From Escherichia coli (lineage in GTDB: Bacteria; Pseudomonadota; Gammaproteobacteria; Enterobacterales; Enterobacteriaceae): a stretch of DNA of 64,000 bases. Below, in pieces: positions 24,129 through 27,410 of the stretch. Location: assembly GCF_003334305.1 (NCBI RefSeq), contig NZ_QOWS01000026.1; one strand, written 5' to 3'. Within the stretch, counting starts at the first letter, position 1. Every line of letters begins with the position of its first letter. Under the pieces are notes generated by a model. It had not been told where the DNA came from. It made no database searches and worked only from the letters and a program-made list of their open reading frames with translations. The translations under genes and the position numbers were made by a program.

Positions 24129-24617
24129 AATAATAAGAGTGTTGCAGTTGTTTCATTTATTACTCAAAAATGGTTTAGTTATCGCCCAGGATGAGTTATG
24201 GATGCTATGAATATATTATATTCAGGGATGTTTATTTTTTGATTGGATCTTTATTTGCATAATCTGAATGGTGTACCCGAAAAATGTCAGCATCCTAACA
24301 GCACCCGGATTTAAGGTGAAATTAATCATCCATCACAGACCGGTCAGTACTGCCACCAACCGGTCTTTACTTGTTCATCGTTATAATTTTGTTGGTAACA
24401 GTTCGGGAAACAAGGAATTCCTTCCGGAACCCCCCGGTATCATCCGATAGCATTGACGTCAATCATCAGCGCGACGATGAGTTTTTTTAATCGCATCATA
24501 GGGTGGCGACGTTCAGCACGATTACGGGTCATAGCAAAACTCCTGGGCAGGCGACCACTATGCCGCTTTCACAGGAGTTCTGAATGCTAGTGCTTTCTGT
24601 ATGGCATAACCATGCCT

Positions 24618-24908
24618 CTAACGGTTAAGTGCTTGCAGCACATGTTGCGGATCATTGGCAATCGCTCGCAGCAAAGCCTTTGCAGGCCCGGTCGGTGAAC
24701 GTCGCCCCTGCTCCCAGTTACGCAACGTGTCTACGCTTACAGAAATAAGATCGGCAAATTTAGATTGTGACAACCCTGAAGCGCGGCGTATTTCTTTGAT
24801 TTTCATAGCATCAACTTCAAAAGTCCGCGAAGGCTGTCGCGTTCCTTCAATAATTTCATTCATCTGGGCCATGCTGTGAGTCAACCGCTCAAAAAGTGCC
24901 TTATCCAT
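24618..24908 (-). CDS. XRE-family HTH antitoxin-like protein (HigA-type)
   Basis: 96 aa; HTH with hallmark LRNWEQGRRSPTGPAKALLR segment typical of HigA-2-type antidotes; start codon directly abuts stop of upstream toxin gene. Confidence 0.8.
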   Translation of the reverse strand: MDKALFERLTHSMAQMNEIIEGTRQPSRTFEVDAMKIKEIRRASGLSQSKFADLISVSVDTLRNWEQGRRSPTGPAKALLRAIANDPQHVLQALNR

Positions 24909-25220
24909 TTACCACCTCGTATTTAACAACCGGAGCATTGCTTTTTCCTGGGGAGACAGATCATCTTTAATACCCTTACGATAAATAAGCAGTAATCTGA
25001 TCTCATAATGTTTAACCTGATGAAAGTAAATAACCCTGACACCAGCACGTTTCCCCTTTCCTCCTGAAACCCATCGAACCTTTCTTAACCCACCAGTTTC
25101 AGGTATTACCTCACCATAGTCAGGATTCAAGGCCAGGAAAAACTGAAAACGACTGAATTCATCGTCGGTCAGCAGTTTTTGAACATCTTCAGTAAAAATT
25201 TCCGTTTCGATGAAGAGCAT
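24909..25220 (-). CDS. RelE/ParE-superfamily toxin-like protein (HigB-type)
   Basis: 103 aa; conserved GGLRKVRW..GKGKRAGVRVIYF core typical of HigB-2/Gp49-like toxins; located upstream of its HTH partner (toxin-first order). Confidence 0.75.
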   Translation of the reverse strand: MLFIETEIFTEDVQKLLTDDEFSRFQFFLALNPDYGEVIPETGGLRKVRWVSGGKGKRAGVRVIYFHQVKHYEIRLLLIYRKGIKDDLSPQEKAMLRLLNTRW

Positions 25221-25342
25221 AATTATACGCCATTGGCTTAGAGTAACAATCCTTTTTGTACGTCATTGACGTACCCTTGAAACCACTAGCTTACTGATAG
25301 TGCTCCAGCAAAACCACGTCTCTGCCGGGTTTGTCTTTAGAT

Positions 25343-25361
25343 TTGCGAGGCGCTTTCCAGA
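25343..25361 (-). promoter_or_regulatory. Recurrent 19-bp motif copy C, about 125 bp upstream of the HigB-like gene
   Basis: Plus strand TTGCGAGGCGCTTTCCAGA; lies between the divergent toxin and esterase genes. Confidence 0.35.
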
Positions 25362-25373
25362 TTTTTCACGCCC

Positions 25374-26357
25374 GTGAATTTCCCTGTATCCATCCAGCAA
25401 AAACGGGTGTATAAGACTGTACATTCATACAGCAAAATAAGTTCTACTATGGCACTGGAAAAAGGAATTGCAGAGTTAGTCGAAAAGTTTATCGCTGCGG
25501 GTCGCCCCTCATCGCGTCAACAAAGTATTGCGCAGCGCAGGGAGGGCTATATCGCCAGCGCTGTCCTTGCGGGTGAGACAGAAACGCGGGTAGATATTCA
25601 GACTATCGAACTTGAAGGGATGACCTTACGAATAGTGTCGCCGCTGAATGCCCCGACATTACTCCCGACGATAATTTATTACTACGGTGGCTGTTTTGTT
25701 AGCGGCGGGTTCGCAACTCACGACAACCAGCTGCGCCAGTTAGCCTATTACGGGCAATGTCGGGTTATTGCCGTCCAGTATCGGCTGGCACCGGAACATA
25801 CTTTCCCCGCCGCCCATGATGATGCGCAACGAGGTGCAGAAATAGTCTGGCAACACGCCGAACGACTCGGCGTTGATAAACAACGTATAACTCTTGCCGG
25901 TGACAGTGCGGGCGGACATCTGGCGCTGGTAACTGCTTTGCGATTAAAGCGTGCTGGCGAGTGGCAACCGGCACAACTCATCTTAATTTATCCTATGCTT
26001 GATGCGACTGCGCATTTCGAAAGCTACATACGCAATGGTCACGATTACATCATCACACGCGACACTTTACTGAGCGGCTTTGAGATGTATCTGCCAGGCA
26101 TTGAACGCAGGCATCCTGAAGCCAGCCCTCTTTGGCGCGATGATTTCAATGGCTTGCCACCTGTACATATCATTACCGCTGAATACGACCCACTTTGCGA
26201 TGAAGGTGAAGCGTTGTATCACCGCATGACAGGGCAAGGAGTGCAATGCACCTGCCAACGCTACCTTGGCGTTATCCACGGATTTTTTCAGTTAGGTGGT
26301 ATCAGCGAGGCCGCGCGATCGGCACTACGGGATGTTGCCTGGAGAGCGGGAAGGTAA
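25374..26357 (+). CDS. Alpha/beta-hydrolase esterase/lipase (Aes / hormone-sensitive-lipase family)
   Basis: YGGCFVSGG oxyanion-hole region, GDSAGG nucleophile elbow, downstream Asp and His (DPLCDEGE, GVIHGF); ORF track start is GTG at 25374, alternative ATG at 25449 (MALEKG..., 302 aa). Confidence 0.8.
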   Translation: MNFPVSIQQKRVYKTVHSYSKISSTMALEKGIAELVEKFIAAGRPSSRQQSIAQRREGYIASAVLAGETETRVDIQTIELEGMTLRIVSPLNAPTLLPTIIYYYGGCFVSGGFATHDNQLRQLAYYGQCRVIAVQYRLAPEHTFPAAHDDAQRGAEIVWQHAERLGVDKQRITLAGDSAGGHLALVTALRLKRAGEWQPAQLILIYPMLDATAHFESYIRNGHDYIITRDTLLSGFEMYLPGIERRHPEASPLWRDDFNGLPPVHIITAEYDPLCDEGEALYHRMTGQGVQCTCQRYLGVIHGFFQLGGISEAARSALRDVAWRAGR

Positions 26358-26375
26358 CTTCGGACCTGGGCCCTG

Positions 26376-26408
26376 AAAAGGTTTTCAGATTGAAAACCTT
26401 TTCAGTCA
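26376..26408. terminator. Perfect 14-bp inverted repeat between convergent esterase and yiiD
   Basis: CTGAAAAGGTTTTC agatt GAAAACCTTTTCAG; no T-run, so terminator function uncertain. Confidence 0.4.
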
Positions 26409-26420
26409 AGTAAAACGCCC

Positions 26421-27410
26421 CTACTCTTCTTCGTTCCCGCCCTCTTCATACGGGCCAAATGGCTTCGCGGGCAGAACGATATACGTGCCTTCAAACACTG
26501 CACCCGGCGTCTCGTCGCCAAAGATTTCAACTTGCATCTGCACCCGTGCTTTTCGTCCGCGCGCCAGACGGTCGAGATCGCCGCTTAAGGCACCAAGGTC
26601 GGCTATCGCATGAGGTTTACCGCTAATCGGCTTGCTGTAGCGGATATGCGCATCCGCCAGAATAATCGTTCCGCCGAGATGGCGTTCGCGCAGCATCAGC
26701 CAGATAAGCCCCCAACCGGTGAGCGTCGCCAGCGAGAATAAACTCCCGGCAAACAGCGTATGGTGCGGATTCTGATTGCCGGTTTCCGGCATGGTGGTGA
26801 TAAATTTTTGCCCGGTATATTGTTGAATGCGCACGCCCATTTTTTCGCTTAATGGAATGTGTTCATACCACGCCTGTTGCAGCTGGGCGCACCAGTCACC
26901 GCGATGCAGAATATCATCCAGAGTGGCAACGGGTTTAATCATCAAAAAATGGCGAATCGGCGTGGTAGTTGGGGTGGTGATCTCCCCCTGATTAATGAAT
27001 CCCAGCTTGGCGAAAAACTCCACCGCGTCTTCACGGGCGCTACAGGTCACGCGCTTAACGCCTTCCTGACGCGCCACCGACTCCAGGGTCATCGCCATCA
27101 GCGTTCCTAACCCTTTGTCCTGCACGTCGGGATGAACGGCCATAAAGCGAATGGACGCTTCATTGTCGGCATTAATATACAATCGGCCTACCGCCACCAG
27201 ATTACCCTGCTCGTCGACGACCATCTGGTGATGCGCCATCGCATCCCACGCGTCGCGTTCCGAACCTTTTGGTTGATGCAGGGGCTTACGCAACATTTCC
27301 CAGCGAAACTGATAGTAACGCTCTAATTCTTCTTCTGTTTGTGGAACCCGAAGGTGATACATAGCGATACTCTCTCTTGTTTCCCGTGACAACCCTGGAA
27401 GCTGGCTCAT
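26421..27410 (-). CDS. yiiD: GNAT acetyltransferase / thioesterase fusion protein YiiD (FabY)
   Basis: 329 aa [40 protein letters not shown]. Confidence 0.88.

Follow-up and report, generated by a model that had tools for sequence, protein, structure and literature searches.

The window (the whole 64-kb stretch of DNA that was analysed) includes the Escherichia coli region fdhE-yiiF-yiiE-...-fabY(yiiD)-dtd-yihY. A gene encoding an esterase, an alpha/beta hydrolase of the hormone-sensitive-lipase type (25449-26357, plus strand), and fabY, also named yiiD (26421-27362, minus strand), are convergent. Their stop codons (26355-26357 and 26421-26423) are separated by a spacer of 63 bp. A hairpin is found inside this spacer, which agrees with the location between the esterase gene and yiiD given by the reading made from the sequence alone (hereafter the sequence-only reading). 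The region not shared with K-12 and O157-type genomes (24411-26420) carries a RelE/ParE-like toxin gene with a NadS antitoxin gene, the esterase gene and the hairpin, interpreted below as the relic of an operator. Homology to K-12 stops at 24410 on the left and restarts at 26421, exactly at the fabY stop codon, which is the right-hand limit of the variable segment; the hairpin lies 15 nt from this break.

The spacer is made of four parts. The left part (26358-26380, plus strand), CTTCGGACCTGGGCCCTGAAAAG, is homologous to the DNA found between the esterase stop codon and a palindrome named O1 in E. whittamii and in E. coli D8, CTCCGGATCCAGAGAAAATTT. It is followed by a 7-3-7 palindrome, GTTTTCA-gat-TGAAAAC (26381-26397, GTTTTCAGATTGAAAAC; no strand assigned), a putative orphan operator of the HigA type. 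The third part is a junction segment (26398-26407, plus strand), CTTTTCAGTC, for which any origin is conjectural. The last part (26408-26420, plus strand), AAGTAAAACGCCCC, is a remnant of the 3′ end of higA: it includes the last codon and the stop codon (AAG TAA) and the higA-fabY spacer, and it aligns with the sequence found before the fabY stop codon in E. whittamii, AAGTAAAAACGCC.

Gene content of the fdhE-fabY interval

An intact-looking toxin-antitoxin (TA) pair (24618-25273) precedes the esterase gene. It encodes a RelE/ParE-like toxin of 103 aa (24909-25220, minus strand) and its partner, a helix-turn-helix antitoxin of the NadS family of 96 aa (24618-24908, minus strand). The pair has its own promoter-like site (TTGTTA-16-TATAAT, 25249-25222), adjoined by a palindrome, TACGTCAtTGACGTA (25259-25273), that is probably its operator and is unrelated to the hairpin. 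The proposal that the hairpin is the operator of the NadS pair was rejected because this operon has its own promoter and a different palindrome.

A 20-nt motif, TTTGCGAGGCGTTTTCCAGA, is present in three direct copies (23670-23689, 24109-24128 and 25342-25361) with 0 to 1 mismatch, 0.01 being expected by chance. The copies are located about 90-125 nt upstream of small genes of the minus strand (yiiF, yiiE and the RelE/ParE-like toxin gene with NadS); the third is also located about 88 nt upstream of the esterase start. A single hybrid copy links yiiE straight to an esterase remnant in E. coli D8, an arrangement suggesting that recombination between copies 2 and 3 led to the gain or loss of the NadS module.

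In the soil isolate SC455 (L034, 2141-2757), an 80-aa CopG-family gene is found at the position of yiiF and is followed by a gene encoding a VapC-family toxin. The yiiF gene of the window (23334-23576) has the same length. According to its position, family and length, it therefore looks like a solo antitoxin of the VapB type that has lost its VapC partner. A REP-like sequence between fdhE and yiiF (23250-23284) is the source of dozens of extra BLAST places per genome (median of 35 with the 4.6-kb query).

The O157 cassette encodes two hypothetical proteins, and the yiiE-fabY segment of K-12 derives from it by deletion. One hybrid assembly includes a 294-kb 'plasmid' (L063, NZ_CP170379.1) that carries a yiiE-NadS-esterase-fabY-dtd-yihY-yihX block with the hairpin; this block is probably a misassembled or excised chromosomal segment.

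The esterase gene had been regarded as an accessory gene inserted beside the core gene yiiD, but the comparison of species points in the opposite direction. A scan of one genome per species retrieved relatives of the esterase at 23 loci, and the downstream flank could be read at 22. The esterase gene directly converges on fabY, with a short spacer and no higBA, in 11 of these 22 species (Citrobacter sp. Awk 4, Lelliottia nimipressuralis, six Klebsiella species, two Enterobacter strains and the metagenome-assembled genome UBA3516). The same adjacency in the four genera Klebsiella, Citrobacter, Lelliottia and Enterobacter indicates that it is ancestral and that the K-12 and O157 arrangement is a derived replacement. 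By this comparison, the esterase gene is an ancestral neighbour of fabY across Enterobacteriaceae and not a recent insertion. The palindrome is found in none of these 11 esterase-fabY spacers; those of Klebsiella are about 10 to 30 nt long and show no hairpin evident by eye.

Structure and variation of the inverted repeat

The hairpin sequence, CTGAAAAGGTTTTCAGATTGAAAACCTTTTCAG (33 nt), is found at 26373-26405, 3 nt to the left of the location first given (26376-26408). It is a perfect inverted repeat, CTGAAAAGGTTTTCA-gat-TGAAAACCTTTTCAG (no strand assigned), with arms of 15 bp (left 26373-26387, right 26391-26405), all paired, and a loop of 3 nt. The repeat reported by the sequence-only reading thus exists, with other coordinates and with a 15+3+15 layout instead of 14+5+14. 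Chance is rejected as its source, since 200 shuffles of the 64-kb window with dinucleotide composition preserved yielded no perfect inverted repeat of at least 15 bp with a loop of at most 10 nt.

The folding free energy of the hairpin alone is -18.2 kcal/mol, and the fold is predicted in both orientations, i.e. in transcripts of the esterase strand and of the fabY strand. Five of the 15 pairs of the stem are G-C pairs. The inner 8-bp stem, GGUUUUCA/UGAAAACC, includes 3 G-C pairs of 8 and alone accounts for -6.8 kcal/mol. Each 3′ arm contains an internal TTTT, so that UUUU directly follows the inner stem. The bases found after the full stem are UCAAGUAAAACG on the plus strand and GGCCCAGGUCCG on the minus strand; neither is a U-tract, and the earlier statement that there is no flanking T-run holds for the full stem on both strands. 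The scan reported no promoter-like and no terminator-like site in the 63-bp spacer. A canonical rho-independent terminator was set aside as improbable: the scan is empty, the stem is not GC-rich and it is not followed by a 3′ U-tract.

The covariance models of Rfam 15 gave no match in 26000-26800 on either strand (E-value up to 1), which rules out a known RNA family as the identity of the hairpin. A repeated element (REP/BIME or another extragenic palindrome) was also ruled out, as exactly one copy is found in each of the 2309 genomes that carry it; the window itself contains a single exact match to the core.

The survey of E. coli covered 5426 complete genomes, 2309 of which (about 43%) carry the spacer with the relic in single copy. 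The 63 nt are identical to those of the window in 1144 genomes. A second haplotype (999 genomes, about 43% of carriers) has A instead of T at 26374, leading to an A·A mismatch at the second base pair of the stem. The remaining carriers (about 166) have other variants, and strain Q5 has lost 1 nt in the T-run of the left arm. No change compensating the stem mismatch was found within E. coli. This within-species variation is consistent with neutrality; divergence is low. At its left end, the hairpin is overlapped by a short GC-rich quasi-palindrome, C[T/A]GGGCCC[T/A]G (26366-26375). Either A or T is found at each of the symmetric positions 26367 and 26374 of this motif, in all four combinations (window, L005, L061 and L062), which suggests recurrent template-switch mutation or recombination.

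Beyond the fabY stop codon, K-12 and O157 types carry another sequence, and homology is lost. Genomes devoid of the esterase gene have there a GC-rich hairpin, GAGAGAGGCagcaccGCCCCTCTC, 5 nt past the fabY stop codon (about -17 kcal/mol on the fabY strand; L001, 2470-2500, in K-12; L002, 3970-4000, in O157). It is unrelated to the hairpin studied here.

Two textbook bidirectional terminators are present elsewhere in the window (44582-44611, AAAAAACCTGCCAGcgatGGCAGGTTTTTT, and 53575-53610, GAAAAAAGGCGACAGattaCTGTCGCCTTTTTTC). Like the hairpin of the spacer, they are long perfect hairpins located between convergent genes, with a 5′ A-run paired with a 3′ T-run. Unlike them, the hairpin of the spacer has an AU-rich core stem instead of a GC-rich one, its T-run, only 4 nt long, is internal to the stem, and no U-rich stretch follows.

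A bidirectional terminator had been one of the initial proposals. In its weaker form, the palindrome, orphaned and lengthened, would have been exapted as a weak bidirectional terminator or as a structure stabilizing the 3′ ends of the esterase and fabY transcripts. This is consistent with the position of the hairpin midway between the two convergent stop codons, with its fold at -18.2 kcal/mol in either orientation, with arms that exceed the operator core by 8 bp (the palindrome of the independently decayed locus L010 is extended too) and with an inner stem followed by UUUU, loosely resembling the terminators at 44582 and 53575. K-12-type genomes have, moreover, the unrelated GC-rich hairpin next to the fabY stop codon. 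The lack of a U-tract after the full stem on either strand, the empty scan, the AU-rich stem and the weakness of the inner stem argue against it. So do the relatives that have no hairpin at this place (the 10-nt gap of D8-type genomes and the short Klebsiella spacers, read by eye), the stem mismatch carried by about half of the carriers without any compensatory change in E. coli, and the arm deletion of one of them. An exapted RNA hairpin is therefore considered unlikely, although it retains some credit.

higBA cassettes at the same locus and the operator motif

In E. whittamii (L031), a higB-higA operon is located between an internally deleted esterase remnant and fabY. HigB and HigA were identified by BLASTP against the K-12 proteins (40% and 43% identity, respectively), by matches in the PDB (5IFG and 5YCL for HigA) and by RefSeq annotation; neither protein had a match in NCBIfam. 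An example of HigA of this E. whittamii/D8 type is WP_001534936.1. The operon is preceded by two palindromes, O1 and O2, GTTTTCAACTTGAAAAT and GTTTTCAGGTTGAAAAC, whose half-sites are those of the core found in the window. This core is located 23 nt from the esterase stop codon vs about 21 nt for O1.

DNA similar to this higBA is rare in E. coli: a DNA-level search found it in only 35 of the 5426 complete genomes, including 34 with about 95% nucleotide identity. In the three of these 34 that were examined (D8, FHI_NMBU_03 and SC455), higBA is found at the present locus beside an esterase remnant; it stands instead of the relic, not alongside it. In D8-type genomes, the stop codons of higA and fabY are separated by 10 nt only. 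The occurrence of the hairpin at the same place in genomes lacking the esterase and TA genes, an eventuality raised by the sequence-only reading, is found in part: genomes of the D8 type are devoid of an intact esterase gene and of the NadS pair and have the palindrome core at the same place, but with higBA.

Metagenome contigs were scanned by exact pattern for two such palindromes separated by 12-40 nt, and 24 loci were retrieved. The palindromes are immediately followed by higB and higA at 14 loci; the 10 others are AT-rich tandem repeats that are not related to higBA and were discarded. Among the 14, higBA adjoins a convergent fabY at eight (L036, L041, L042, L043, L051, L053, L054 and L058). 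Seven of these eight also have the esterase gene upstream, six of them in full and one (L051) in a form interrupted by the contig end; L053 has no esterase match. Five other contigs carry the same pair of palindromes directly upstream of higB in unrelated genomic contexts. A distant HigBA pair with only about 30% protein identity, attributed to the further locus L056, is counted among these five. The two-palindrome pattern was not found in viral contigs. The association of the palindromes with higBA in other contexts, together with their absence from the 11 esterase-fabY spacers devoid of higBA, indicates that the motif is a feature of higBA and not of the esterase gene or fabY.

The half-sites GTTTTCA and TGAAAAC are exact in 32 of the 34 palindromes of 17 higBA loci; the two exceptions are O1 variants, each differing by one base. 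Variation is found in the central 3 nt and in the 20-21 nt that separate the two operators. O1 and O2 are spaced by 37-38 nt from start to start (28 nt in the distant pair). Conserved half-sites around a free centre are the pattern expected from a dimeric DNA-binding protein; an RNA stem would tolerate compensatory changes. When the 17 loci are read together, a candidate promoter can be proposed: the right half of O1 contains a -35-like TTGAAA, followed 16-17 nt downstream by a TAnnnT hexamer, just before O2. The spacer of the window differs from this operator context by the lack of any higB or higA ORF and of any promoter-like site.

A third HigBA pair is encoded between hycI and ascB and has DNA-level matches in 941 genomes. 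Its operator is GTTTACAtatTGTGAAC (GTTTACA-tat-TGTGAAC; L064, 1360-1385), lengthened to GGGTGTTTACAtatTGTGAACACCC in strain 746 (L065, 1245-1275). Among the three paralogues, the recognition helix and the variable bases of the half-site change together: SKSNVSNIL with TT, SKSLVSQIL with TA or CA and SKSMVSRVL with GC. The motif GTTnnCA-N3-TGnnAAC, whose two variable bases track the residues of the recognition helix, is thus a candidate specificity code for HigA of the YgjM type. Such an operator code could help to locate HigA regulons and orphan sites.

The symmetric and intact half-sites of the relic, and the existence in E. coli of HigA paralogues with related operators (GTTTACA and GTTGCCA), one of which is found in 941 genomes, raise the question of a still-active site. 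The HigA of the hycI-ascB pair or of ygjNM would bind the orphan operator, which would act as a decoy or as a transcriptional roadblock. This is very unlikely, since one or two of the seven half-site bases are different in the paralogue operators, as are the recognition helices. Furthermore, higBA DNA of the cognate type is found in 35 of 5426 genomes only and replaces the relic in the three genomes examined, and a lone site with no promoter nearby has no obvious regulatory target. A HigA of the same specificity, too diverged for detection at the DNA level, may act in trans.

Putative origin of the relic and comparison with known systems

The hairpin is most probably an orphaned HigA operator that was left after a deletion of higB and higA and is now likely to be functionless. 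Assignment of the core as an operator is deduced from its position, its symmetry and the covariation seen with the paralogues. The earlier proposal of a protein-binding site would thus be correct as regards origin, the core corresponding to the palindrome that is the putative HigA operator in the higBA cassette found at exactly this position in relatives.

The ancestor would have carried a higB-higA operon between the esterase gene and fabY, encoding a HigA that would be a helix-turn-helix antitoxin of the YgjM type. This operon would have been preceded by O1 and O2 (GTTTTCA-N3-TGAAAAC) bracketing the higBA promoter, O1 containing the -35 element TTGAAA and O2 being immediately preceded by the -10 element. 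The lineage of the window would then have lost the promoter, higB and nearly all of higA by deletion, keeping only the last codon and the stop codon of higA, joined to a single palindrome. The capacity to form a hairpin would be a by-product of the symmetry of the operator, 8 more complementary bases having been added at or after the deletion. The hairpin would now be at most an incidental 3′ stem-loop on the esterase and fabY transcripts.

Five states of this locus, arranged here by extent of decay, are found. In the first, the cassette is intact or has an esterase gene merely cut by the contig end (seven metagenome contigs). In the second, higBA is kept and the esterase gene is gutted (E. 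whittamii and 34 E. coli genomes). The third and fourth have one palindrome each: L015 carries a solo higA and has lost higB, and L010 (Superficieibacter) carries a truncated higA and has lost higB and the 5′ part of higA. In the fifth, a single palindrome is left with the final 6 nt of higA (window and 2308 other E. coli genomes). The promoter is gone, and at least 2274 carriers out of 2309 have no cognate higBA detected at the DNA level; the site thus probably does nothing specific at present.

A recombination junction had also been proposed. The hairpin does abut the scar of the higBA deletion, close to the K-12 break, but it shows no sign of a recombination site, is present in single copy and is not accompanied by a recombinase gene. 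In a stronger version of the proposal, the hairpin would be the target of a recombinase or transposase (similar to attC, REP or IS200/IS605 ends) and would mediate exchange of yiiE-fabY cassettes. The high variability of the yiiE-fabY interval in E. coli (at least five arrangements) and the 15-nt distance from the K-12 homology break are in keeping with such a role. The finding of one copy per genome and none elsewhere, the lack of an Rfam match and of an adjacent recombinase gene, the absence of a hairpin copy at the right ends of the K-12 and O157-type cassettes and the origin from a higBA operator, which already accounts for the sequence, make it highly implausible.

The arms of the palindrome are longer than those of the operators. 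The first 8 nt of CTTTTCAGTC (i.e. CTTTTCAG) pair perfectly with the left flank, CTGAAAAG, of which they are the reverse complement, and lengthen the arms from 7 to 15 bp. This 8-bp extension is not part of the operators of intact cassettes and, with a chance probability of about 4^-8 (about 1.5e-5), is too long to be accidental. Neither edge of the deletion, in higBA cassettes of the Escherichia type, offers a clear counterpart of CTTTTCAGTC. Global alignment with E. whittamii and D8 is fragmented and gives no unique deletion endpoints: the core of the window resembles O2 and its left flank resembles that of O1. The locus L010, which decayed independently, also has lengthened arms, CTGTTGTTTTCA/TGAAAACAACAG, of 12 bp. 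Extension of the arms in both the window and L010 hints at selection for a hairpin or at a mutation process specific to palindromes, pure neutrality appearing insufficient. Selection might have favoured a 3′ stem-loop after the esterase gene and fabY had come to converge directly, whereas the mutation process might have been fold-back templated synthesis at the junction of the deletion. An origin of the right extension from O2 flanks would be a third option, less parsimonious than fold-back synthesis or selection: comparison of the right flank with the O2 flanks of L041 (CCTT) and L042 (TTCAGT) gives two partial matches that are mutually incompatible.

Quasi-palindromes are hot spots of template-switch mutation, in which synthesis is templated by a fold-back structure (Ripley model). 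Two features of the locus resemble such hot spots, namely the A/T transversions at the symmetric positions 26367 and 26374 and the right extension that is the exact complement of the left flank; recombination between haplotypes could also yield the four A/T combinations. During or after the deletion, fold-back synthesis at the operator could have copied the left flank rightward, converting 7-bp arms into 15-bp arms, and the product would have been kept as a makeshift bidirectional 3′-end structure. This full scenario is regarded as quite improbable. If true, a protein-binding site would have been turned into an RNA element by palindrome-specific mutation, perhaps independently in Superficieibacter L010.

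The origin from a deleted higBA explains a conspicuous hairpin carried by about 43% of the complete E. coli genomes. Its value lies mainly in annotation: the relic is ordinary and the current understanding of TA biology is unchanged. The fdhE-fabY interval would be a graveyard of TA systems, including yiiF and yiiE (regulators of the CopG type), the NadS pair and a fully erased higBA.

One of the closest known systems is the higBA operon of K-12. Its promoter was mapped and is repressed by HigA, and its inverted repeats have been suggested to be the binding sites (Christensen-Dalsgaard et al. 2010, PMC2814082). In the open-access literature, no paper was found that defines the operator sequence of E. 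coli HigA experimentally. The K-12 higBA promoter carries ATCCGTTGCCAatcTGGCAACGGAT (GTTGCCA-atc-TGGCAAC) and a second, weaker partial site (L035, 6456-6540). The same 7-3-7 dyad, GTTnnCA-N3-TGnnAAC, is found in K-12 and in the window. In the K-12 operator, too, the palindrome is extended (arms of 11 bp), and K-12 HigA is 43% identical to that of the cassette that fills the present locus in relatives. The two differ by the central bases of the half-site (TT here, GC in K-12) and by the number of sites (one here, two in K-12). Unlike the K-12 operator, the relic lies between convergent stop codons and is devoid of promoter, higB and higA, the cognate gene being usually absent from the genome.

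Decayed or orphan TA loci, such as solo antitoxins and TA pseudogenes, are another term of comparison, and further TA remnants are indeed found in the same interval. The decay is deeper here: nothing remains but the operator and 6 nt at the 3′ end of higA, so the relic is invisible to gene-based TA finders.
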